Positions 1 to 21,032 of a stretch of 32,000 nt of DNA are shown here, in pieces. Position numbers and translations under genes: made by a program. Source of the DNA: an uncultured Nitrososphaeraceae archaeon (GTDB lineage Archaea; Thermoproteota; Nitrososphaeria; Nitrososphaerales; Nitrososphaeraceae). The notes below the pieces were generated by a model, which worked only from the letters and a program-made list of their open reading frames with translations, did not search any database and had not been told where the DNA came from. Positions within the stretch are counted from its first letter, which is position 1. Every line of letters begins with the position of its first letter. The stretch is from positions 1-32,000 of the forward strand of contig CAWGVG010000049.1 of NCBI GenBank assembly GCA_963825865.1. Direction: 5' to 3'.

Positions 1-1388
1 CATTCCCTATGTATATGTGTAGATACAACCTCATTAACAGATTAATAATAATTTGAAATTCGAAATTGCTATTTTCCTATCACAATTTTGCCTCCTTGAT
101 AGTAATTACATTTCAAAATTTTGCATACAAAGTGTTGCTACAGCAAAGTGTTTGCTGCCTATATTAAAGAAAAAGGAGACAGCATCTGTCAATGGTGATG
201 GTAGTAGTGGAAGTGGATAACCAGGGAAGGGGCAGCTGAGATCGAATAGTAGTAGCAATGGATAACCAACAGCAACAATTAGGTAATGGCTGACTCTCAG
301 TCTTTTCCTTCACCTAAATTATAGTCTAATCTTTTTCTATTTAAAGAAAGTCTCCAAAATCGCTTCACTTGCAACATTGCTCCCCACATTAGCATCATTT
401 GGTACAGTCTACATCATTTGTTGGTGGCTTGTTCATTGAATGATTGTCACAATACTTTTTACAGTAAAGAGCTTATTTATTTCTTCGACCAACCAATTGA
501 GCTTTTATAAATTCTTTTGATTTTGAAGCCGGCTAATTATCAGTAATTTTTTGGCTAATTTGCTCTAATTCTCGTTACAGATTCTTCCTTATCGAATATA
601 CCACCATACTGTAGAAAAATATGTAATTACATATGTTCTTATGCGGTTTACATTAGTAATATTCAATACCCAATAGCTAGATGTCTAGAGCAATGGTTTT
701 ACCTTGTGCACCACCGGTAAAATTCACCAGTTAGGGCATGTAACCTTTGAAATGGAGTACATGCCCAAAGAAGTAAAAAGTGAAGGGGAAGAAGCTAAAT
801 ATGGCAAGACTCAGAATAATTAGCCTGTCACATTGCACAAGTTGGTTAGATGTCAAATGCGATGGAACGGTGCCGGCATTAGAAAAGGTAAGTTCTCTAA
901 ATGAAGGTTCTTTATGCTGGCTTAAGCTAAATGAAGACAGATCAAAGGCTAGGAGAGGCATTTACAAGATTACCGAACTCAAAAGGCAAAATTTTATTGC
1001 TGCCTGGATCGTTCTACTACAACAAATCTCCTTAGCTGAAATTTTGTTGTTTAATCTACCAACCAATTTATTACCAGTTATTACCTTCATCCTTAGTTTC
1101 AACGAGTCTAGTAGAATGTTTAAATGCATACTTAATTGATTGCACAACAAAATACTACCTGTAGTGTATTACTACTAACTAAATCACAAACTCGTTTTTC
1201 TATCCCGCTTTTATGACAGGAACTCAAAATGTGTGGCAACAACAATCAAAAAAATTTATTTGTTGTTATTTCGCCAGTTTCCTGTTCTTGCTTTTCTTCA
1301 CTTTCTTTATCGTCTCCTTTTCTTCACTTTCTTCATCATTGTAATGAGAGTATACTACCGACTATCGACTGTCTCATATTATAATCTA

Positions 1389-1683
1389 TTAAGATAGCTT
1401 ATCAATTACGTTAGCTGCTTCAGCCATTGAAAATGCTTTGAGTGTTCCAGTACGTATATTGCCTAGGCTTCCGGTAACTGAATAACACTGATGCTATTGC
1501 CTCATCATTTGGAGCCTCAATTACCGATACCATATCATATCTTCCAATCGTATAATAGAAGCCGAGAAATTTACAACCTGTTTTTTCTAATGCACTTCCA
1601 AAAGATTTAGCTCGTTTTACAGTATCTTTAACATTCTTTATTCCTTGATCTGTCCAGTTCACCAGTACGATATAATTTGGCAT
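1389..1683 (-). pseudogene. GYD-domain protein with a 1-nt frameshift near 1468-1476
   Basis: MPNYIVLVNWTDQGIKNVKDT...GFYYTIGRYDMVSVIEAPNDEA fits the GYD family. The expected C-terminus GSLGNIRTGTLKAFSMAEAANVIDKLS* is readable in another frame and ends at TAA 1389-1391. The track ORF 1420..1683 ends in out-of-frame residues. Confidence 0.75.
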
Positions 1684-1786: not shown

Positions 1787-2092
1787 GAAGATTGGTCTGG
1801 ATATAACCAGTGGATTGGAGCCGATGGTGCTGCATTTCTTTCTGCAGGCGGGTACCATCATTACATTGGCATGAATACCTGGCATAGTTTGAACGGAGAA
1901 GCTCACTTGAGTGGAGAGGCAGGATTAGAATATTTTACAATAATAATCCCAGACAGGTCATTTGTTAAGACACTTGCTTCGCGTATACAACAACACAGCT
2001 CTATTACTTCTAATTCTAAACAGGAAAGCGAGAATCAACTGTCGTTGGTTTCTGATCCAGATCACATACAGTTTCTGATTAGGTCAGAGTAG
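1787..2092 (+). pseudogene. C-terminal fragment of a two-domain VOC (glyoxalase/extradiol dioxygenase-like) protein
   Basis: The in-frame stretch ...AAFLSAGGYHHYIGMNTWHS...GLEYFTIIIPD...DPDHIQFLI matches only the C-terminal VOC module. A TGA lies just upstream at 1784-1786 and no N-terminal domain is present. Confidence 0.6.
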
Positions 2093-2942: not shown

Positions 2943-3471
2943 TTGTTCTAACACTAATCCTTTTTTGTTTTATGTCTTCACCCACTCCTTCAAGCTTTCC
3001 AGTCCTCACGTCATATACGAACCCGTAGACCGGTATATCCTTTGGAAGAAAGGGGGTCGACTTTATCCTATCTACCTGATTCTTCACATTCTCCACAAGA
3101 TCTGAAAATGAGTGGAATTTGAGTTCGCTTGCATCTGCTTTGTACTTTTGGGCGAGCTTCTTTTGTAGGTCTTCATCAGCGAAGGTAAGCATTCCGCAGT
3201 CTGTATGGTTTACGACCAAGAACTCTTGTGTTCCAAGAAGCTCGTGGGAAATAATAAGTGAACGTATAGCGTCATCAGTAGCTATCCCGCCAGCGTTTCT
3301 TATAATGTGCGCTTCTCCTGTATTCAATCCCAGGAAGTCTTCCACGGTTAATCTCGCGTCCATGCATGCAAGTACCGCAAGTTTCCTCGAAGGTGGACTC
3401 GGCAGATTCCAATGCTTGAAATCCTTAGAATATTCCTCGTTTGCTGCGAGTATTTTATTTAGTTCAGCCAT
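2935..3471 (-). CDS. Beta-class carbonic anhydrase
   Basis: 178 aa with an ATG start. It has the zinc-ligand motifs LACMDARL and VVNHTDCGM plus IIRNAGG, as in Cab-type beta-CAs. A TATA-like box lies about 25 nt upstream of the ATG. Confidence 0.9.
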   Translation of the reverse strand: MAELNKILAANEEYSKDFKHWNLPSPPSRKLAVLACMDARLTVEDFLGLNTGEAHIIRNAGGIATDDAIRSLIISHELLGTQEFLVVNHTDCGMLTFADEDLQKKLAQKYKADASELKFHSFSDLVENVKNQVDRIKSTPFLPKDIPVYGFVYDVRTGKLEGVGEDIKQKRISVRTNV

Positions 3472-3740
3472 ATCAGATACTCTATATTAGAATATAGTAG
3501 GTTGGCAATATAACTAAATCCAAGTATGCAAAATAGATTGGATATGTGTATTATTATCATCATTTTTAAAAATAAAGCTGGGATCACTCACTCTGGACTG
3601 CTAGCAAGAGAATTGCTAGAATCAGCCATAACCAACAACAACTGAGTAGTTACCTTAGGATGGTCTGTGCCTTATCTCTTTTTTAAAAATGTATATAAAT
3701 TAATGTGTGCTCATGATTTGTTTTCTTGCATCCAATTTAA

Positions 3741-3908
3741 TTAAATCCCAGATTTGTGATTATTTTTGTCGCAAGAGCAGGAAAAACCACGACATTGACT
3801 ATGGTTCCCCTGCGTGCAATAACCACATATTGTTCTGAAATCTGATGCTACATCAGTAGCTATAAAGCCATCATCCTTATCCAATGGTATATCTGAATCA
3901 TCTTTCAT
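3741..3908 (-). CDS. 55-aa Cys-rich small ORF, hypothetical (below the track threshold)
   Basis: My own translation is MKDDSDIPLDKDDGFIATDVASDFRTICGYCTQGNHSQCRGFSCSCDKNNHKSGI*. It has an ATG start and a clean stop. There is no support other than the Cys pattern. Confidence 0.25.
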   Translation of the reverse strand: MKDDSDIPLDKDDGFIATDVASDFRTICGYCTQGNHSQCRGFSCSCDKNNHKSGI

Positions 3909-4276
3909 TAAATCAATTGTCTATCGAACTATGAATCTAATAAATATTGTTTGTATAGACGACAGGGTATATAAATGTATCTAAAAAAAGATGGCCTATG
4001 CCCCTAGTATCGTTACTAGTTGCTTTTGTATTAGTAATGAGTGGACCTGAGGGCAGTATAATAAACAGCAATTATGTCTATGCGGCCATAATAACTGCCA
4101 AGTAGTGCAAAATGAGGACATATATCTACACTACGTTATGGCAGTGGTTTACTTGTTAATCTTGTAGTAACTCTTGCAAAATAGTTTGCTACTAATATAT
4201 ACTGAATTGAATTAACTATGTTAATCATTGCCTATATAAGACAAAGTAGAAGAGATACAACAGTATATCTACACAT

Positions 4277-4726
4277 ATGTTAAATGCTAATAATAATGAT
4301 TACAATAAAAAGGAACAATTCACTACTGTATCGTCTTCTTCTTCTTCTTCCAGATACAGAATACTGAGCCTAATAGACAATTTTATCGAACAAATATTCC
4401 ATATTAGAAAAACACTCCTAGGAGTTTCTATTTCTGCATTGGTATTAGCTCCTATTGCAATAGGTCTTTCAGTATTCTTGTTACAGCACGCATCGTTTTT
4501 CGCAATCCTTGATATAGAAAATGAATTTGGAGACGTCCTTGCTGTGCTTTTAGGAACGATTATTATTATTTCTTCTATATGGCTTGTAGCAGGTATAAGG
4601 CAGTATCGGCTAATTAGTTCTTGGAAGAAAAGATATGGAGATTATATCAGAGAAAAACAAGAAATAGATAGAAAGATTGCGTCACAATATAGTAGTGAAG
4701 TTAGTAATAGTAGTAGTAATTATTGA
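4277..4726 (+). CDS. Membrane protein, two predicted TM helices, hypothetical
   Basis: 149 aa. It has an N-terminal poly-Ser, two hydrophobic stretches (LLGVSISALVLAPIAIGLSVFLL and VLAVLLGTIIIISSIWLVAG) and a charged tail. Confidence 0.5.
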   Translation: MLNANNNDYNKKEQFTTVSSSSSSSRYRILSLIDNFIEQIFHIRKTLLGVSISALVLAPIAIGLSVFLLQHASFFAILDIENEFGDVLAVLLGTIIIISSIWLVAGIRQYRLISSWKKRYGDYIREKQEIDRKIASQYSSEVSNSSSNY

Positions 4727-4755
4727 TTGCTGTTTTTTTAAATAACTGCAATTTG

Positions 4756-5172
4756 TTATGTTGTTACTAGCCGCAAATGCTGTTCTTCTTGTTGATGATC
4801 TACTTCCTCTTGAAGACGACTTAGTTGTCTTGCTGGTTTTTTCTCTTCATTACTATTACTATTATTATAGACAACAAACTCTTTTCTTCTTGGGAACATT
4901 TTCTCATATGGTTCTAATATACTTCTACAAAACTCTATCCCTTTTTGTGTGGGCTTGTAGATTGCAACAATTCTTTTTCCAAATGGCAATTCGCTTTTGT
5001 TTATGAAACCATTTACCTGTAGTTCGTCAAGTATGCATCTATGCTTTTTCAAATTCAATCCACAAAAGCTAACTAATGCAGTCTGGTTTAGCTCACCATG
5101 CTCTACCAACTTTAGTATTATATCCTCAACGATGTAAATCCTGTCACGATACGATATTGGAGAAAGAGACAT
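4756..5172 (-). CDS. Winged-helix DNA-binding protein (archaeal COG3432-like regulator)
   Basis: The first ~95 aa (ILKLVEHGELNQTALVSFCGLNLKKHRCILDELQVNGFINK...IYKPTQKGIEF) look like a wHTH. The tail is low-complexity and acidic. Confidence 0.6.
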   Translation of the reverse strand: MSLSPISYRDRIYIVEDIILKLVEHGELNQTALVSFCGLNLKKHRCILDELQVNGFINKSELPFGKRIVAIYKPTQKGIEFCRSILEPYEKMFPRRKEFVVYNNSNSNEEKKPARQLSRLQEEVDHQQEEQHLRLVTT

Positions 5173-9218: not shown

Positions 9219-9466
9219 ATGACAATAGCAACAAGTATAGCGGAGAAGAGACAAAGTACAAGAAGCTTTGCAGCAAAGGATATAGTCAAAGACAGATATC
9301 GCACATGCTGCAAGTTGGACTGGCTACCATAAATAGAGACATATCATACCTGAGAAATCAAGCTAAAACCAACATCAAAAGATACATTGATGAAAGACTA
9401 CCAGAAGAGTATGAGAAATGTCTAGTTGGGTTGACAGCAATTCTAAAGGAAGAACACCACTATTAG
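9219..9466 (+). pseudogene. HTH protein of the integrated-element module (copy 1), two frameshifts
   Basis: Reconstructed as ...RRDKVQE/LCSKGYSQRQISHMLQVGLATINRDISYLRNQAKTNIKRYIDERLPEEYEKCLVGLTAILKEEHHY*. The N-terminus is paralogous to the stub at 14317. Confidence 0.5.
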
Positions 9467-9480
9467 TCTAGTGGTGTTCT
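9451..9480. repeat. Perfect 12-bp inverted repeat with a 6-nt spacer
   Basis: agaacaccacta ttagtc tagtggtgttct overlaps the stop codon of the HTH remnant. Confidence 0.8.
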
Positions 9481-9644
9481 TATATTCCGCTACCAAACTG
9501 AAAGCTCGGGATAATCTGGCTATTTTTATTTCTGTTTCTTGAAGTTTATGGATTTGAAACGTTGGGAGCTTTGGTTGCAGATTTTCTAACCGGTAAGTTT
9601 CCTATAATCATGAAGACAGACATATCCAGAGCCTTGATTCTAAT

Positions 9645-9935
9645 ATGCAAAGCAATGGTATGCAGACAACAGTAAATGGACAATTCGAACCAACTTTTTA
9701 CAAAAATATAGATTTAGACGATATGCTAAATTATCTGTTAAACATCAGAAAGTTTCAAAATCACAATGCCAGAAGCTTGGTCAATTATTTCCGTAGCTTT
9801 CGAGACATATTTTTTGGTCCTGATCCTGCAGAAATTCTAAAGTTAAAACCACATAAGAGATCATGGATTCTGCAAGCAATCCGACATTTTGGAAATTACA
9901 ATGGCAATACAATCGTTTCAAGAAATACAAAGTAA
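9645..9935 (+). pseudogene. Possible N-terminal (SAM-like) fragment of a tyrosine integrase
   Basis: The 96-aa ORF (…LNYLLNIRKFQNHNARSLVNYFRSFRDIFFG...KPHKRSWILQAIRHFGNY) is helical and sits directly after the HTH remnant. No catalytic domain follows. The assignment rests on context and general resemblance only. Confidence 0.3.
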
Positions 9936-10017
9936 AATCAGAAATCAGAATATCTGAAGAAGATGCAACAGCAAGGTTCCTAAGAGTAAACAAGTAACTA
10001 TCTAGGAATAGTAGCTA

Positions 10018-10308
10018 TTACATGATGATTATCTTCACATACAACACAGCCTCGTTATGGCATAGATGAAGTAGAAGAGGTACTTTCTCAAGATACAATC
10101 CTATATTCTCTGTAGGATTGTAGCTCCCACCCAATCCTCCTCGTCTTGTTGAGTTGGAAAACCTCCAAGTGCTGTGTCCCGTTGTTCCTAAACAGGTCAT
10201 CCCTAGCAGCACCATCGCATCATGATTCTTTTTCGGTATTCTGTAGACAAAGAGCACGACCTGACTTCCAATCTCTTCTTGCATTTCCTTTATGTTTGAT
10301 TTACTCAT
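10018..10308 (-). CDS. Hypothetical protein, possibly DUF1428-like and possibly frameshifted
   Basis: The start MSKSNIKEM overlaps the upstream stop (ATGAGTAA). VVLFVYRIPKKNHDAMV resembles the DUF1428 N-terminus. The middle reads better in another frame (DDLFRNNGTQHLEVFQLN). Confidence 0.3.
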   Translation of the reverse strand: MSKSNIKEMQEEIGSQVVLFVYRIPKKNHDAMVLLGMTCLGTTGHSTWRFSNSTRRGGLGGSYNPTENIGLYLEKVPLLLHLCHNEAVLYVKIIIM

Positions 10309-10910
10309 GGGTAGCAGTATGTGATGCATAGTTTAAAAAATGACGATGATAACTATCAACTGCTATAGAATACATTGCAAAGATGTACATTTGTACCATG
10401 TTGGAAGCTGCTTCCAAGCCGGAGGGCCAGATTTTTCAGCAAGAATTGATAGACTAGGTGGCTTCTGCGTAGTGGCCATGATGTCAGCTTGAGCCGGATC
10501 TTACATCTTGAGAAAACATATCGTGGAATAGGTCTGGGTTTATGTATGCAAATCCTCCACTATCGGTTTTCAAAAAGTCTTTTGGAAGCTTTTTGACGTC
10601 GAAGAAATCGCCTAGGATTGGCAAGCAACGTAAACAAGTCCTGTGACATTGGGATTATTATAAGCAGCGTTTGTGATTACTATTCCACCATATGAGTGTC
10701 CGACAAGAATTGTTGGTCCACCAACAGCTCAATTGCACGCTTTACCGTAGCGATGTCATCTGCCAAAGAATGAAGAGGAAGCTGTACAGCTATAACTTTA
10801 TGTCCTGTGTTCTTTAAAATGGGAATCACTTTGCTCCATGAAGATCCATCAGCCCAAAAACCATGGACTAAAACGATGTTCATACTAGTGGTTGCGTTGT
10901 TTGTTGCCAT
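10301..10910 (-). pseudogene. Alpha/beta hydrolase with at least 3 frameshifts
   Basis: NIVLVHGFWADGSSWSKVIPILKNTGHKVIAVQLPLHSLADDIATVKRAIELL is followed in other frames by GGPTILVGHSYGGIVITNAAYNNPNVTGLVYVA, then ILGDFFDVKKLPKDFLKTDSGGFAYINPDLFHDMFSQDV, then DPAQADIMATTQKPPSLSILAEKSGPPAWKQLPTWY. Confidence 0.8.
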
Positions 10911-11515: not shown

Positions 11516-12911
11516 TCATTGACCCGATGCAGCTGAAATCCTGTATATCTTTCCTTCACCATGACTTGACTTTTTTTCATCAAATGTCAATATATACAAA
11601 AGACCATCTGGCCCAGTCTTGATATCTGTTATGCCACGAAAACCTGTTGCAAGAGTTACTGCTGCTACTTCATTTTTATTATCAGCTACCTTATCTGATA
11701 GACCAGAAGAAGAAGAAGAAGAAGATGATGATTGTTGACTATTGCTATCTTCATTGCTATTATCAAACTTTAGTCCTGTTCTATTTTCATTAACCTCAAA
11801 GAAGTACAGATTGCCTTTGGTTATATCGCCAACAAATATGTTATTTTTGTATTTGTCTCCAAGTTTTGATGAGTTCAGAAAAGCTATGTCTGTTACACCT
11901 ATTGATTCAAACCAGCTAAAAACAGGATCGGCATATCTGGAGCCTGGAAAATTAAAAAGCTGGGATTCATTAATACTGCTGTTTCTGGAGATGGGTCCCA
12001 TCACCTTCTTCCATCCACTGTTGAAACCAGATTTCATCATAATCTTTATCGCCGTTTTCTGCATCCCATAAGGTACCAGTTACTGGATCAAATGCTAGTC
12101 CAAAACTGTTTCTTATGCCATATGCAAAATATCTGCTCATAGCTGAGCTATTGCCATTTTTCTCAGATAAAAATGGATTATTCTTAGCTGGATAGCCATT
12201 ATCAGGGTTTATTCTTAGTATTACAGATGTATCATCTGGTTCTGGTCCATCTATGAAATTCTGAAGTTTTCCCTGTCTGTTAAGGTCTCCTATAACTGCA
12301 TATAGATATTGATCAGGACCAATTGCCAATTTTCCACCAGGATGATTTTGACCCTCTGCAGGAAGGTCTAAAATAAGCTTGGGGTTTATAAGCGTCTCTC
12401 CATTCCATTGGTATTTGTAAACTCTATTTCTTACAGGCTGGTCACCTTTGGCTGCTTCTGAAAGATAAAGAAAAACTTCTCTACTGTTATTGCTGCTGTT
12501 GCTGTTACTTGCTTTAGTTGCTATTCCCAAAAGGCCACGACAGCATATTCGAGTGGAATTATCAATATCGACTTTCAGTACAGGTTGGTCTTTTAATACG
12601 CCATTTGAAACTAGACGTACTTCTCCATTATTCTTTTGTAGAATCAAAATATCTTTGTTGTTGTTGTTGTTGATAAATGCCATACTAGTTGGATAAGATA
12701 ATCCTTGTACTACTAATTCGGCTCTTAAGTTAGGATCATTAAAAGTTGGTTCTGTAGAACTTGCTTCTGCTTCTTTGATATTGGTGGCATAGACATCACT
12801 AACAAAAAAGTGTCTGCTATAAACACTAAAATTTGATAAAATAAACAAAACCATAACTGCTAATGCTATTACTGGTATAGTAGAAGAACAATAATAATAA
12901 AGTCTATACAT
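11516..12911 (-). pseudogene. PQQ-type glucose/sorbosone dehydrogenase beta-propeller, one frameshift near 12027-12033
   Basis: It has a signal anchor (MYRLYYYCSSTIPVIALAVMVLFIL) and the motifs RGLLGIA, NHPGGKLAIGPDQYLYAVIGD, ILRINPDNGYPAKNNPF and AYGIRNSFGLAFDPVTGTLWDAENGDKDYDEI. The frame then switches to GFNSGWKKVMGP...GPDGLLYILT...GKIYRI. Poly-Asn and poly-Ser inserts are present. Confidence 0.8.
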
Positions 12912-13029
12912 AGAATTAATTTCGTTCTTATAACACATAGTAAGTATTTGTTCTTTTTGAACTTTAGAACAAATAAGAGCAATAACAACAATAAGCATAA
13001 AGTCTGCCCATGTGAATTGCATTTAAGCG

Positions 13030-14260
13030 TATTGTTTTATTCATCTAGTGTATGACCATATCCACACATAACAGATTGAAAGGATATCTACCCATTCGAG
13101 GCCTTACCTCACTACAGTCTTTATCCTCATTGTTAAGGATGGATTGCCACAGTTAACTTGACGAGGCTATTCTCTTACCTCAAGCTTTATGTCGTGGTTA
13201 TGACTCCTTAACTGTCATTATATTTTGGAACATATTCTCTTCTTTCTTTTATAACCCAATAAACAACCTTCAGCAATTTGGATGCAGCAGCAACAACTGC
13301 TTTTGAATTACCTTTAATTTTAGCAAGTCTTTCATAAAACCTTGTGATGCTAGTATTCTTATAATTTCTAATATGAGCACGGACACATTCTACCATAACC
13401 CATCTCAGATACCTGCTACCTGTCTTGGTAATAAATCCGTGATATGTTATACCACCTGAGCTATGTGTAGAAGGTACCAGTCCTGCATATGAACAAAGAT
13501 GGTGTGAATCAGGAAATCTGTTTATGTCTCCACCAATTTCACTTACTATCAATAGAGCAGAGTAATATCCAATGCCAGGTATTGTCATTAACAGCTTGGC
13601 AATATCATTTTCATTTACACATAACTTTATCTTTCTAGATACATCATTAATTTCTGAATCTAGAGATTCTATTATACGAAGGTAACTATCAATTCTGTAA
13701 TCTTTGATCTCCTTTAATTTCTCAATATGTTTACGAGTAAAAGGATGAACACCTGTTATTCTTACACCCTTCATCAGGATAATGCTATGAATCTTGTTCT
13801 TCATCTTGGTTCTCATTTTCACCAATGCAAGCCTGTGCCTGACAAGCTCACGTAGACCCATTGTTTCCTTGTCTGGAATGTAGCACTCTGCTATGTATCC
13901 ACCTCTAAGTAAATCAGCTAATTTCAACGCGTCTATTTTGTCTGTTTTTATCTTAGCTGTTGCTATAGCTTTTGTTTTGACAGGATTTGATAATACTACA
14001 TCAAGGTGTTTTTGCTTTGATAGGTATTCGTATATGTTATACCATACACCTGATGATTCCATTACTACCTTTGGATTTTCGTTATTGATATCCTTGAAGA
14101 ATTTGCCTACTTCAACCAAATCATTATCTATCCTTGAATTTCTAATCAGCTTTCCATTTTCATCAAGTGCAGCTATTTGAAGATACTTCTTGTGAAATCC
14201 ATTCCTATGTACATAGTAGGTATTTTACTGTCTAAGTTGGATTTAGGTAACTTTTTATTC
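13030..14260 (-). mobile_element. IS110-family insertion sequence (boundaries approximate)
   Basis: It holds the transposase gene, about 180 bp of 3' non-coding DNA and under 100 bp of 5' non-coding DNA. It sits between the sugar dehydrogenase start region and an HTH gene stub. No long terminal inverted repeats are visible, as expected for IS110. Confidence 0.7.
13208..14214 (-). CDS. IS110-family transposase (DEDD N-domain plus C-terminal transposase_20-like domain), with a frameshift at codon 7
   Basis: MYIGMDF is followed after a 1-nt shift near 14195 by HKKYLQIAALDENGKLIRNSRIDNDLVEVGKFF...VVMESSGVWYN...PGIGYYSALLIVSEIGDINRF...LCSYAGLVPSTHSSGG. The track ORF 13208..14119 begins only at an internal TTG. 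Confidence 0.85.
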
Positions 14261-16274: not shown

Positions 16275-16609
16275 CTATTGTGGTGTACTCATTCTAAGAA
16301 CATCAACCTGTCCACTATCTAACCAGTTCTTTAACTCTTCATAGGTTGGCTTTCCATCATGCTTGCCAGCTAAATCAAGATAATGCCATTTTGAACAAGT
16401 ATTTTCTGCTTTAAATCATTACCCATCCTTCTCTTGATGTACCTAGCGCTTTGCTTTGAATTCATAGACCATCTTACTGTTTTCTTTAGAGCATATTCAG
16501 GTAAGTAATCAGAATCGGAAGTGATAGCAGAATGTCTTATGCAATATGGATTCCATTTTTTAGTTTTGATAAGGTATTGATGTTTTTCTGCTTCTTCTTT
16601 ATCAGATAT
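16275..16609 (-). pseudogene. Tyrosine integrase C-terminal catalytic fragment, with a frameshift near 16375
   Basis: ISDKEEAEKHQYLIKTKKWNPYCIRHSAITSDSDYLPEYALKKTVRWSMNSKQSARYIKRRMGNDLKQKILVQNGII contains the RHS...RY catalytic residues. LDLAGKHDGKPTYEELKNWLDSGQVDVLRMSTPQ* follows in another frame. A stop codon lies directly upstream of the first residue. Confidence 0.65.
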
Positions 16610-16704
16610 TTAATCTTGGGGAAGGGGCTATGATTAATTTTACCAATAACCACCATGCAGCAGCAAAGTTATTCCTTGACAATTCGACAGGGTTAGAAAA
16701 ATGA
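16606..16704 (+). pseudogene. 3'-terminal stub of an acid phosphatase/PLC paralog
   Basis: IFNLGEGAMINFTNNHHAAAKLFLDNSTGLEK* parallels the C-terminus of the long pseudogene at 18435 (AGSIMNMFNFTNSHP..KLFLDNSTGVEK*). Confidence 0.6.
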
Positions 16705-16708
16705 ATAA
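16673..16708 (+). repeat. 36-bp direct repeat, copy 1 (att-like)
   Basis: tccttgacaattcgacagggttagaaaaatgaataa is identical to 16986-17021. A 33/37 match in inverted orientation lies at 18432-18468. Confidence 0.9.
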
Positions 16709-16719
16709 CTATCGCAAAG

Positions 16720-16860
16720 TTGACAAGGTAATCATCTTGTCAAATCAAGCGCAGACTTGACAGAGCCTTAATTTAGGCTCTGTAAACCATCTCCCTATGT
16801 ATGGACACGACCATAGGGAGATTGGAACAATCTTTTTCCTGAGATGTTTCGGAAAGAAAG
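16720..16860. other. Cluster of three strong hairpins and one weaker hairpin inside the 277-bp segment between the 36-bp repeats
   Basis: Hairpin 1 is ttgacaag(16720-16727)/cttgtcaa(16736-16743). Hairpin 2 is acagagcc(16760-16767)/ggctctgt(16776-16783). Hairpin 3 is atctccctatg(16789-16799)/catagggagat(16812-16822). Hairpin 4 is the imperfect tctttttcc/ggaaagaaaga at about 16831-16860. Confidence 0.75.
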
Positions 16861-16985
16861 AGAATCGCTGTAGACGAATTACAAACTATTGTAATAAGGT
16901 AATACCATAATTTTTCTATTTGTTATTTAATTTTGATTTATATACAATTCAATAAGACTAGCCCATGGTTACTTAGGGTAGGTTA

Positions 16986-17021
16986 TCCTTGACAATTCGA
17001 CAGGGTTAGAAAAATGAATAA
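16986..17021 (+). repeat. 36-bp direct repeat, copy 2 (att-like)
   Basis: Identical to 16673-16708. The sequence upstream of it is not phosphatase-like, since a stop codon lies 2 codons before LDNSTGLEK*. Confidence 0.9.
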
Positions 17022-17106
17022 TTCTCAGGCCTAAAAATCAGAGTGTGATTTTCTTTACATTATGAATTAACGTTAATCATTTGTTATCTCTTTCAATCTG
17101 AATACC

Positions 17107-17367
17107 TTATCTTTTAATAATGCCTCCGAAATGGGAATTGCCATTCAGTCCTTGGCTTCCATGCAATCCAATAGATCCTGGTCCAGACTTAATTCCACCT
17201 GCTCCAACAGTCCCACCATTTTGTCCTTCACATTTTGCTCCCCCGAACTTTAGAGCGCCAGCAGCTGTATCTGCAGTTCCCTTTTTGGAATTACAGTCTA
17301 TTGTGCTCGTGTTTATACTATCTACTGCATTCGACACTTGGGCTATCGGTGTCATTGTTATGATCAT
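17107..17367 (-). CDS. Small Gly-rich protein, hypothetical, possibly 5'-truncated
   Basis: 86 aa. ...TPIAQVSNA looks like the end of a signal peptide, and a Gly-rich region with 2 Cys follows. The upstream reading frame closes immediately. Confidence 0.3.
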   Translation of the reverse strand: MIITMTPIAQVSNAVDSINTSTIDCNSKKGTADTAAGALKFGGAKCEGQNGGTVGAGGIKSGPGSIGLHGSQGLNGNSHFGGIIKR

Positions 17368-17370
17368 AAA

Positions 17371-17582
17371 GATGAACGGTCAGTTCTTAGAGCTTTGTTA
17401 GATACGAGAGCAAAAGGGTTAGATGAAAAGATGCTTGTAACTGCATCGTATGCAATCGCTTCGCTAGTTGAAAAGACTCACTTGAATGAAAACTATGTAA
17501 TTCCCAAAGTAAACGACCAAGGGTTCTCCCAGTTGTGACAGAGACGTTAAAAGAGGCAATCGTACCAGTATCTACTAAATGA
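17371..17582 (+). pseudogene. Malic enzyme C-terminal fragment, with a frameshift near 17525
   Basis: VLRALLDTRAKGLDEKMLVTASYAIASLVEKTHLNENYVIPKVND fits the malic enzyme tail (RGALD.RA..i.eeM..AA..AiA.lv....yiiP). VLPVVTETLKEAIVPVSTK* follows in another frame. Confidence 0.55.
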
Positions 17583-18136: not shown

Positions 18137-18434
18137 AAACATGTTAGAAACCTACCATCGCTAGAATAAGTGACTGAATGTATGCTTGTATATTCAGGTC
18201 CTATACTAGTCTTCTCTCCACTCTGCATATTAGTCCAATTATACCAAGGAGTTTCTATTTCTTGGCGTCCAAAGCAGGAGATAAAGCAAACACATTTGTC
18301 GGCCACGACAAACAATAAAACACAACTGCTATAATAACAAACAAAAGTAACTGCAGAATGAGACTGTCCAAGTCTGCATGTTTGAAGAAAATCCTCCTAT
18401 ACTAACTCAGTTTCTTTATGATATCGGAATTCTT

Positions 18435-20027
18435 CATTTTTCTACCCCTGTTGAATTGTCAAGAAACAGCTTTTCGCAGGATGACTATTTGTAAAGTTAA
18501 ACATGTTCATAATTGATCCAGCTTTGGCATCAAATGATTGATCTCCAATACGCTTCAGGCCCCAATTATCCTCTATAAACCTAATTATGGATGTCTGGTC
18601 TGTAATCTCATGATCAACATAGTTTACCTGGAGATATTATCAATAAAGGAAGGCGAGGCCCATAACCACATCTGTCTTGATAAGCACCTGCAGGAGCGTG
18701 GCCACAAAGGCCATCCTTGCCAAGGAGCCTATCGTAAACGGGGTCGTTGGATTGACTGACTATCTGTGGCATTACATGATCATACCATCCATCTGAGTCA
18801 TCATAAGTTATAATGACTGCTGTACTATTCCATTGTGGTAGATTTTGCAAGCGGTTAGTAGTATTAACTAGAAAAGTCTGTTCATCAAGTGGATTAGAAA
18901 ATCCTGGATGTCCACTTTGGAATGAGGGGGCCTTGAGAAAACTAACTGCAGGTAAATTGCCACTTTCACGGCTCTCCAGAACATACTCAGATTATATTGA
19001 TGATTTGCTTGGTCACCATTACCGACCATTGCTACTGAAGTTGGGGATAGATGATGAGGATTGGCTGTAGAATTATAGTACTGGAAAGGTTCAACATCTG
19101 GATAATAGTCATTCTGTTGAGTATTATTATTAGTCAAGATAACTCCGTTGTATGAGCAAAGCCATTTACCATTAGCTATTTTAATAGATGGTGTGAAACC
19201 TGCTGAAAACCATCCCCATGTTACATTATTTTTCTCATTAAGACGATCACCTATGTTCTTATTCTTATCTGACATGACTATTGTAGGATTTGTGTGATTT
19301 GAACAATCATCATTGGTGGGATCTAGGTTACCTATCAAGGTACCTTTAACAACACGGTTTTTAATGTCGGTTGATATAACATGACCTTTACTGTCTCTTG
19401 GTATCACACCATGAGTCTGACCAGAAATAAAGTTAAGATGTCCTGGAGTTGAAGGCCCAAAGGTAGGACTAAAGAAATTATCGCTCATTGCAAAGTGTTG
19501 CGCATAGTTCCATAATGCTGTTACAGTATTACCATCATAATGTCCCATGACCTGATGTAGGCGGCAGGCACATTACAATAATCTCGATAAGGGGATGTAG
19601 AATTTACAAAGTTGTCCAAAAGACCACCGTTAGTTGCATTCTGCTCAGCTGTGTAACCATGATTCATGTCACAAGTTACAGCTCGGGAGCGATCTAGACG
19701 GAATGGCTGATATTGATTTGTATTATTAGTCAATTGGGCTCCAGTTAAACCATTAACTGATGGTGTGTTTGGAGAAGGTGAAAAGTGAGGTTCACCAGGT
19801 AGATTTGTAGTATTAGGATAAGTAGCAAAATAGTGATCGAATGAAATATTTTCTTGAAAGATGACTACAAGGTGTTTAATAGGTTTAGCTGTTGAAAAAT
19901 TACTAGGAGCAGCAGAAGCTTTCGTTGCAACTGATATTAGCGACGTACCAGATAAAATTGACGAGATTATTAGTAATAAAGCTAAAAGTACATTTGTTGA
20001 TATCTTATTCAATAGGTGCAGTTGCAT
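18435..20027 (-). pseudogene. Phosphoesterase-family acid phosphatase / phospholipase C (AcpA/PlcN type) with four frameshifts
   Basis: A signal peptide is followed by IKHLVVIFQENISFDHYFATYP. After shifts near 19550, 18965, 18625 and 18480 the pieces read VMGHYDGNTVTALWNYAQHFAMSDNFF..FGPSTPGH, then GNLPAVSFLKAPSFQSGHPGFSNPLDEQ...AVIITYDDSDGWYDHV, then YVDHEITDQTSIIRFIEDNWGL, then KLFLDNSTGVEK*. Confidence 0.85.
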
Positions 20028-20478: not shown

Positions 20479-20885
20479 TCAAACTATCTGGATGATTGAT
20501 ACTTGATGCGCTATAGCATGTGATGTATTGATAAAAACATACCTGATATTAATACTACCACTGACTTTAATGGCTGCGGCTGGTAGTATTGTACTGGATA
20601 ATGATAATACCGCATTTGCAAAAAACAAACCAGTAAATAATGGCCCGGCTGCATTAGGTTTTAGACCAGAAGTCAGAAATCTTAATTTTAAGCCCAAGCC
20701 TCTTTGTTGCTCTTATTACAGCACAACAAGCCTTGATGGCTGGACTTGAACCTTCTATATTTTGACTAACCGAATCTATTGCTGTATCTCTTACGAAATC
20801 ACTTAGACCGAGTTGTTTTGAAAGCCTTTCAACATACTCTGCTGCATCTAAAGCAGGAACATAGTCTATTTCTGACATAGTTTGC
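20479..20885 (-). pseudogene. TFIIB (TFB) cyclin-fold remnant, frameshifted, no zinc ribbon
   Basis: [61 protein letters not shown] fits the TFB repeat (dyv.Rf...L.l...v...A......sG.sP..iAaA.iy.A). A shifted frame further on holds AAAIKVSGSINIRY (compare VTEVTIRNRY). Confidence 0.5.
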
Positions 20886-21032
20886 ATAACGCTTTTTGTC
20901 GCGATTCCAAAATCCATACACGAGGATCGGATCCGAGAGAACAGTCAGGTATTCGACTTCGATCTTGCGCCTGATGATATGAAACTCCTAGACTCGCTGA
21001 ACGAGAATTTGCAAACAGTATTCTTTGATTAG
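20886..21032 (+). pseudogene. Aldo-keto reductase C-terminal fragment
   Basis: ...[44 protein letters not shown] matches the AKR tail (IPKS...Ri.EN..vFDF.L...dm..l..Ln). It is GC-richer than the flanks and no upstream barrel is present. Confidence 0.6.

Follow-up and report, generated by a model that had tools for sequence, protein, structure and literature searches.

A probable eroded insertion at the 3' end of an AcpA phosphatase gene in a soil Nitrososphaeraceae archaeon

Degraded integrated elements and integrase fragments are encountered in Sulfolobus chromosomes, and integrases of the SSV (Sulfolobus spindle-shaped virus) type split their own gene on integration, with the fragments bordering the attachment (att) sites. 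In Thaumarchaeota, 14 of 68 integrated elements were located in the 3'-distal parts of genes for proteins, the open reading frame (ORF) of which is reconstituted, as is exemplified by NitEve-E2 in a Zn-finger gene of Nitrososphaera evergladensis (PMC6563490). Integrons, which have also been described in archaea, employ an IntI integrase and attC sites, in which R'' and R' sites bracket an imperfect hairpin of 57-141 bp (Ghaly et al. 2022, PMC9668308). The locus analysed here is a 277-bp insert at the 3' end of a gene encoding an AcpA-type phosphatase (AcpA-1), present in a 32,000-bp stretch of DNA, hereafter the window, of an uncultured Nitrososphaeraceae archaeon (GenBank assembly GCA_963825865.1, contig CAWGVG010000049.1, positions 1 to 32,000, forward strand). 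The insert is bounded by two identical 36-bp copies of the gene end, the core copies A (16673-16708) and B (16986-17021), and the same site is found empty in some relatives and occupied by other interiors in others. Judged from these comparisons, the 277 bp appears to be what an internal deletion has left, in this strain alone, of a larger polymorphic insertion bounded by attL/attR-like gene-end duplications, and we consider the locus to be an eroded insertion at the AcpA-1 3' end that was probably established via site-specific integration by a tyrosine recombinase. Events of this type are already documented in Thaumarchaeota, and the AcpA gene end is a new target.

The duplicated gene end and its empty and occupied sites

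Relatives are designated below by L codes, for genome or metagenome loci, and by X codes, for sequencing runs, which are mostly soil metagenomes; X28 is a soil metatranscriptome run, and its contigs are RNA-derived. Related loci were retrieved with homologues of an 86-aa ORF downstream of the insert (ORF86) as the anchor, and a wobble-degenerate core pattern was searched in genome, viral, and metagenome contigs. All relatives recovered are Nitrososphaeraceae of soil origin. The parts of the gene end and its flank in the window are:

16625-16672, plus strand: AcpA-1 stub, ending ...GAMINFTNNHHAAAKLF and truncated on its 5' side
16673-16708, plus strand: core copy A, attL-like, comprising the final 10 codons and the stop of AcpA-1, with two TYGACAR 7-mers
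16986-17021, plus strand: core copy B, attR-like solo gene end, an exact repeat of copy A
17022-17047, plus strand: native downstream flank of AcpA-1 (26 nt), located directly 3' of the single core in L112 and in contigs of X2, X3, and X4

A sequence-only reading of the window had noticed the 36-bp repeat, had assigned its product to the C-terminus of a phosphatase, and had found phosphatase coding sequence in front of the first copy only; each of these observations was borne out. The 36-mer, TCCTTGACAATTCGACAGGGTTAGAAAAATGAATAA, is present in two exact copies, with 0 of 100 dinucleotide shuffles giving any match, and the repeat extends to approximately 43 bp (16668-16710 and 16981-17023) if a single T indel to the left and a single C/T mismatch to the right are allowed. 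Its product, LDNSTGLEK followed by the stop, is the C-terminus of a PF04185 phosphoesterase of the AcpA type, in agreement with the ends of the intact AcpA homologues in related metagenome loci (525-537 aa, C-terminus ...KLFLDNSTGLEK before the stop). The AcpA coding sequence in front of copy A, which runs from approximately 16625/16630 to 16672, shares 91.7% identity with the 3' end of the gene that L112 has in intact form, and 82-91% with other AcpA loci, and in near-identical strains full AcpA coding sequence is located upstream, where the window has the truncation.

An empty site with a single core in relatives, which had been named as a check on the proposed integration, is present in L112, where an intact AcpA gene of 527 aa ends in one core that matches copy A at 36 of 36 positions and is followed by the same 26-nt flank and by an ORF86 homologue; the flank identity of L112 to the window is 91.4%. 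Short contigs of X2, X3, and X4 have the same empty-site arrangement, and the contig of X2 joins 16710 to 17033, by which 322 bases are skipped. Over positions 17048-17297, the occupied loci (window, L108, and L111) cluster apart from the empty L112, and a single gain therefore suffices.

The right junction is occupied in L108-L111, in which the order of the window is kept from 16786 onwards, across core B and the flank and into ORF86 (93.7% and 88.9% identity), the sequence to the left of 16786 being unlike that of the window. This junction, with approximately 200 bp of the right end of the insert, is also found in contigs of X8, X15, and X29. The solo core of L108-L111 is decaying, and reads GGG-CTAGAAAATGA in L108 and GGGGCTAGTAATATGA in L111. 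The left junction is occupied in strains of five runs (X28-X32), in which AcpA coding sequence (TTTGATGCCAAAGCTGGGTCAATTCTAAAC...) continues from 16630 through core A into the left arm of the insert with 1-2 mismatches. These strains leave the window at 16763 or 16768 and proceed into two different interiors, which start with CTCTATCTATATATTATATATACACATTGT in X28, X30, and X32 and with TTGATATTGTCTGGAGCTTATCCCAATTTA in X31. The location of the stop codon inside the duplicated core, together with the intact AcpA sequence that reaches the core and left arm in the X28-X32 strains, upholds the earlier suggestion that the gene end was restored. The suggestion of a reduced remnant is likewise supported by the close strains and relatives that share the left or the right junction around other or larger interiors.

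Every junction of the window was reproduced at 0-1 mismatches by independent metagenome contigs, which excludes an assembly artefact. The joint of integrase fragment and stub is covered by a contig of X47 (16495-16653), that of stub, core A, and left arm by X6 (16613-16763), that of core A, left arm, and right block by X25 (16682-16832) as well as by X26 and X27, and that of right block, core B, and flank by X1 (16928-17078).

The RNA-derived contigs of X28 (16630-16768) start in AcpA coding sequence, cross the core, and continue into and past the left arm. They are a hint that transcription may read through into the insert, with DNA carry-over as another possible source of these contigs.

Structure of the 277-bp insert

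Between copies A and B, the insert is a mosaic of four parts:

16709-16768, plus strand: left arm (P'), starting ATC..CG AAAGTTGACAAGG, with hairpin H1 and three TYGACAR 7-mers
16769-16785, plus strand: junction filler, containing GGCTCTGT, which is an inverted copy of the adjacent ACAGAGCC, and forming hairpin H2
16786-16962, plus strand: right two-thirds of unit V, with hairpins H3, H4, and H5
16963-16985, plus strand: right arm (P arm), which is not AcpA coding and adjoins core B

The description of the insert as ORF-free and packed with hairpins was confirmed, as there is no ORF of at least 40 aa in the 277 bp and five hairpins are predicted, i.e., H1 (16720-16743, 10 bp), H2 (16759-16784, 9 bp), H3 (16787-16823, 11-13 bp), H4 (approximately 16831-16863, weak), and H5 (16877-16895, 7 bp). 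On either strand, the segment folds far better than shuffled sequences (z = -4.5 and -4.8). In H3-H5 the stems are conserved but show no covariation, and the loop of H3 is variable. Rfam gave no match at the gathering threshold for the window and none at E<=1 for 16500-17150, and scans for transfer RNA (tRNA) genes and bacterial-type terminators were empty.

H2 is confined to the filler joint, because the one half of this hairpin inverts its neighbour, and relatives part from the window on either side of the filler, at 16768 and at 16785/16786. We take the filler to be a putative product of snap-back repair at an internal deletion. The motif of the left arm is similar to ATCAACCGAAAGTTGACAAGG. 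TYGACAR occurs 21 times in the 32-kb window, where approximately 17 copies are expected, and five of these copies cluster within 88 bp (16676-16763), core A holding two and the left arm three, of which one is inverted; core B contains two further copies (16989-17003). On sequence grounds, this cluster fits a putative set of core-type and arm-type binding sites of a recombinase.

The sequence-only reading had also proposed a search for a MITE (miniature inverted-repeat transposable element)-like family. No such family emerged, as the 277-bp unit lacks inverted ends and is not repeated within the window or across 1.1 Mb of related loci; it was found in this strain only, though its pieces recur elsewhere. 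In a census of these 1.1 Mb with nhmmer and regular expressions, the left arm and unit V were found only in L002, where the match is weak, and in L108-L114. L108, L109, and L111 keep the right arm beside their solo core, as do contigs of X2, X4, X8, X15, and X29.

The full form of unit V, of approximately 300 bp, is present in L108, L111, and L113, and its 5' part is absent from the window. It starts with a TATA-like TTAAAT approximately 30 nt before a leaderless basic ORF of 28-31 aa (MSKKFRKSYSTLIKLAQQQRKLNVGLTR followed by the stop), after which hairpins H3-H5 follow; the corresponding positions are 1826-1909 (minus strand) in L108, at 1578-1661 (minus strand) in L111, and at 1122-1217 (minus strand) in L113. 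In L113 and L114, unit V has a different genomic context (the L113 copy being 83% identical to the window part), and this DNA is therefore foreign to the AcpA locus. Among relatives unit V occurs in at least two contexts, and a small gene and a small mobile module are both conceivable. The so-called gene X upstream of unit V in L108 is a fragment that resembles an ordinary chromosomal secreted protein, and a leftward extension search with its C-terminus returned only short fragments in unrelated contexts (L117 and L118).

The integrase fragment, other AcpA gene ends, and the neighbourhood

Three further features border the insert or are related to it:

16380-16611, minus strand: tyrosine recombinase pseudogene fragment, internal 77 aa, from the box II HxxR to the region of the catalytic Tyr
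17048-17375, minus strand: ORF86 block, with an 86-aa glycine-rich ORF at 17107-17367 and homologues P0121-P0132
18430-20027, minus strand: AcpA-2 pseudogene, a second paralogue with at least 3 frameshifts, the 3' end of which (18430-18473) is an inverted core copy (copy C)

The recombinase fragment had been taken for the C-terminal part of an integrase and had been linked with the inserted element, and neither view could be maintained. The fragment (translation …KKWNPYCIRHSAITSDSDYLPEYALKK.VRWSMNSKQSARYIKRRMGNDLK…) has 638 homologues, and both the alignment and intact genes place it in the interior of a protein of approximately 437 aa, of which some 250 N-terminal residues as well as the C-terminal CPRC...CSKC zinc ribbon and coiled-coil tail are missing. 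BLAST of the window against 80 genome loci with this integrase gave a match bounded by 16374 and 16614 (66-82% nucleotide identity); nothing else around the repeats matches these loci, and none of them carries the AcpA core. A tRNA gene is located just upstream on the same strand in 26 of the 50 integrase loci that were scanned (Arg, Ala, Lys, Met, Val, Pro, and intron-bearing), and intact integrase genes are found approximately 60-100 bp downstream of the tRNA. For example, in L028 (Candidatus Nitrosocosmicus agrestis) the tRNA-Arg ends 61 bp before the start of the integrase gene (437 aa), which is followed by genes of an element type, with a 363-aa ORF and genes for an AbrB-like protein, a Zn-finger protein, and a 749-aa P-loop protein. 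The adjacency to tRNA genes and the many copies identify the family as a multi-copy, tRNA-targeting integrase. Since the fragment is located outside the A-B interval, and its place is taken by intact AcpA coding sequence in strains with the same attL junction, it is not the cognate enzyme; it is debris unrelated to this insertion.

The 437-aa zinc-ribbon integrase is multi-copy in Nitrosocosmicus, Nitrososphaera, and Nitrosopolaris (80 loci, L018-L097; e.g., L028 9357-10807), and many of its copies are truncated or contain in-frame stops; the copy of L017 is degraded. L070 is the sole integrase locus with an AcpA gene within 10 kb. This gene (3210-4802, minus strand) has another C-terminus (…LILDPNRGNMIVH) and is located 4.6 kb from a tRNA-Arg and a frameshifted integrase (9360-10816), a proximity that is probably coincidental. 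In the window, the end of a different ORF (…KWHYLDLAGKHDGKPTYEELKNWLDSGQVDVLRMSTPQ followed by the stop) is found in another frame immediately downstream of the integrase fragment, at 16290-16378 (minus strand), where the zinc-ribbon tail of the integrase would stand, and contigs of relatives diverge at 16289 and 16342.

The third core copy that had been reported is indeed inverted and forms the 3' end of an AcpA pseudogene (32 of 36 positions over the core; pseudogene body at 18432-20027), but it belongs to a different paralogue and is not a third att site. AcpA-2 is approximately 73-76% identical to related genes, and its alignment with L016 (72.8% over 1.7 kb) takes in the downstream flank. 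At least nine AcpA genes, which are otherwise approximately 25% divergent, have a nearly identical core of 30-36 bp. The final 40 nt or so are near-identical in the AcpA paralogues of L003, L004, L006, L011-L016, and L112 and in copies A, B, and C of the window, and the conserved ends include the less-favoured codons CTT and GAC. This near-identity is in part an ascertainment bias, because the search pattern forced amino-acid identity. The wobble-degenerate core pattern matched 16 loci in metagenome contigs, none in genome contigs, and none in viral contigs. In L006 and L014, AcpA paralogues are arranged in tandem.

Another soil lineage (L001, L002, L005, and L008-L010) contains a solo core of the AcpA-2 type without an AcpA body, located on the minus strand at 5247-5282 in L001 and at 209-244 in L002. 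L001 and L002 are 99% identical up to approximately 120 bp upstream of the core and wholly different beyond that point, where L001 has an insertion sequence (IS)-like transposase fragment and L002 has a DUF2283-like ORF and a small neighbour ORF, a pair that was read by eye as DUF2283/DUF4258-like. A short stretch of apparent likeness between the right arm in the window and that of the L001 solo core was set aside, as its length is too small to distinguish it from decayed AcpA coding sequence.

On the right-hand side of the insert there is a sharp breakpoint at 17047/17048, from which L113-L116 match the window only rightwards. The ORF86 block, of approximately 330 bp, has three different left neighbours in relatives (an AcpA end, a solo core, and a response-regulator region), and the core is absent from the distant ORF86-homologue loci L113-L116, L119, and L120. 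The window as a whole is archaeal, has approximately 35% G+C, and is rich in pseudogenes; its neighbourhood has a low coding density and numerous broken genes. These include a malic-enzyme C-terminal fragment (17338-17538, plus strand), a TFIIB-repeat fragment (20654-20917, minus strand), and a glucose/sorbosone dehydrogenase gene truncated at the C-terminus (11970-13022, minus strand), and an IS110-family transposase gene is present at 13208-14119 (minus strand). No exact-protein matches were found for the 293-aa ORF of the window or for P0097.

Origin of the insertion and comparison with described systems

The history that we consider most plausible would start, in a Nitrososphaeraceae-like archaeon from soil, with the entry of an element at the very 3' end of AcpA-1, most likely through a tyrosine-recombinase exchange between an element-borne site and the final 36-43 bp or so of the gene. 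Because the stop codon is located within the exchanged core, the gene would have been preserved at the left junction (attL, 16668-16710), and a solo gene end would have been generated at the right junction (attR, 16981-17023) beside the native flank. The element may subsequently have diversified or decayed among strains. In the window strain, an internal deletion would have brought the first 60 bp or so of the left arm against the final 200 bp or so of the right end, with the short palindromic filler in between, and in a separate later rearrangement the AcpA-1 body would have been lost and the integrase pseudogene fragment would have come to abut the 84-bp stub. The attL/attR interpretation offered by the sequence-only reading stands in so far as the repeats act as attL/attR-like gene-end duplications around an insertion; as neither an integrase nor a circular form nor a complete element came to light, we infer the site-specific recombination step from the anatomy of the locus.

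Several observations weigh against this history. There is no integrase between the repeats and none that can be linked to the site in any relative found, and no single contig contains a complete element with both junctions. The circular P-core-P' junction was not seen in the runs examined, the contigs of which are short and shallow, and the identical cores, in combination with a variant right arm, account for the only backward joint (16971 to 16668). The core, left arm, and variant interior have no matches in viral contigs, where shorter patterns for the core, H3, left arm, and variant interior gave unrelated palindromes of higher GC content or nothing. An att site of 36-43 bp is long in comparison with the thaumarchaeal median of 17 bp, sites of more than 25 bp being found in 7 of 68 cases (PMC6563490). 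Moreover, the larger element in relatives may also be debris, because gene X of L108 is a fragment of an ordinary secreted-protein gene. Finally, homologous recombination by the host is a live rival, because several AcpA paralogues carry the core.

This rival would require no integrase: DNA bearing the conserved AcpA end, either excised between tandem AcpA paralogues or acquired from a relative, would have entered the AcpA-1 core by host homologous recombination and would have left the same repeats without an att system. We regard such an origin as possible but unlikely. It draws on the near-identity of the 30-36-bp core in at least nine AcpA genes of approximately 25% divergence, on the tandem paralogues of L006 and L014, on the failure to find a cognate integrase, and on the independent AcpA-2-type solo core in another lineage (L001, L002, and their group). 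However, the donor core would have to follow non-AcpA sequence, which itself presupposes an earlier solo core, and the three further core-type 7-mers in the left arm suggest a protein-binding architecture. Somewhat less likely still is an origin in which no mobile element took part, and template switching or patch repair duplicated approximately 40 bp of the gene end, with the gap being filled from elsewhere. The composition of the 277 bp, with a 60-bp piece, a 17-bp filler that inverts its neighbour, and a 200-bp piece that is present elsewhere, would agree with such a rearrangement, as would the patchwork of gene fragments in the neighbourhood with its sharp breakpoints at 16611, 16785/6, and 17047/8. 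Nevertheless, the left and right junctions are each common to strains with different, larger interiors, which indicates that the duplication is older than the mosaic and once bounded a larger insertion.

Direct repeats around a short, non-coding, hairpin-rich segment might also be expected from a tandem duplication of the gene end, from a MITE or transposon with its target-site duplication, or from an assembly artefact, but we give these explanations almost no credence. Independent runs recovered all junctions with 0-1 mismatches. A tandem duplication, the alternative against which the sequence-only reading had set its own proposal, was rejected because the 277 bp is not similar to its flanks and its right part is a foreign segment homologous to unit V. 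A MITE, transposon, or casposon was rejected on account of the best end-to-end inverted match (17/40), the 36-bp duplication, and the single copy; to our knowledge, a target duplication of 36 bp is not known for transposons or casposons. A split integrase of the SSV type was dismissed since stops are found in each of the three plus-strand frames of the core and the fragment is internal and out of frame, the AcpA stub separating it from the core. An integron attC site was discarded as well, since neither RYYYAAC nor GTTRRRY is found in 16600-17100 on either strand.

X8 and X16 contain sequence similar to the left arm in other contexts, and in L002 there is a weaker likeness. In X8 and X16 the left-arm homologues are preceded by …AGATAAAAATATCAACCG and …CATTAAAATCATCAACCG, and not by the AcpA core, and the apparent gene ends before the P'-like sequence of X8, X16, and L002 read ...AGATAA, ...CATTAA, and ...CAATAG. 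In L002 the left-arm-like sequence, with 19 of 22 matches in one block, is located approximately 330 bp upstream of the solo core and directly after the stop of the DUF2283-like gene. Conceivably, but in our estimation improbably, the left arm forms the conserved end of a hitherto undescribed Nitrososphaeraceae element family that inserts within a few bases after varied stop codons, with TYGACAR serving for recombination or binding. If such a family had repeatedly entered and left AcpA paralogues, this would also explain the near-identical last 40 bp or so of these genes, and unit V and the ORF86 block, each of which is found in multiple contexts, could then belong to the same system. Unless the left arm is the end of such a wider 3'-end-targeting family, the understanding of these systems remains unchanged.

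In comparison with described systems, the eroded insertion at AcpA-1 resembles the degraded elements of Sulfolobus in its solo att copies, in the presence of integrase and gene fragments at one locus, and in its decay in place. Unlike in the SSV-type case, the fragment is internal, not in frame with the core, and located outside the repeats, and its family is found whole beside tRNA genes. The tRNA-targeting Nitrososphaeraceae elements with the 437-aa recombinase are the source of the 16380-16611 fragment, whereas these elements adjoin tRNA genes (26 of 50 loci) and none of them contains the AcpA core. The locus therefore provides a caution that an integrase fragment beside an att-like repeat is not necessarily its maker, the two being separated here by relatives. 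With integron cassettes the locus has in common that hairpin-containing, non-coding modules follow gene ends and that small blocks are shuffled between contexts. In contrast to integrons, its hairpins measure 20-40 bp, and the locus lacks an IntI-type integrase as well as any array of cassettes in like orientation; the integrase family of the fragment has no link to cassette arrays. The closest likeness is to the thaumarchaeal integrated elements (PMC6563490), with which it shares the clade, the 3' end of a protein-coding gene as target, flanking direct repeats, and a reading frame and stop that are kept at the left junction, while occupied and empty sites are both visible among relatives. It differs from these elements in its repeat of 36-43 bp versus a median of 17 bp, in its gene-less remnant of 277 bp without an integrase, and in relatives that yield junctions only rather than a complete element, and AcpA is not among the targets in the main text of that study (PMC6563490). 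The AcpA end thus joins the short list of protein-gene integration targets in ammonia-oxidising archaea, and, as empty, occupied, and decayed states are found in co-occurring soil strains, the locus offers a usable natural example of island erosion.

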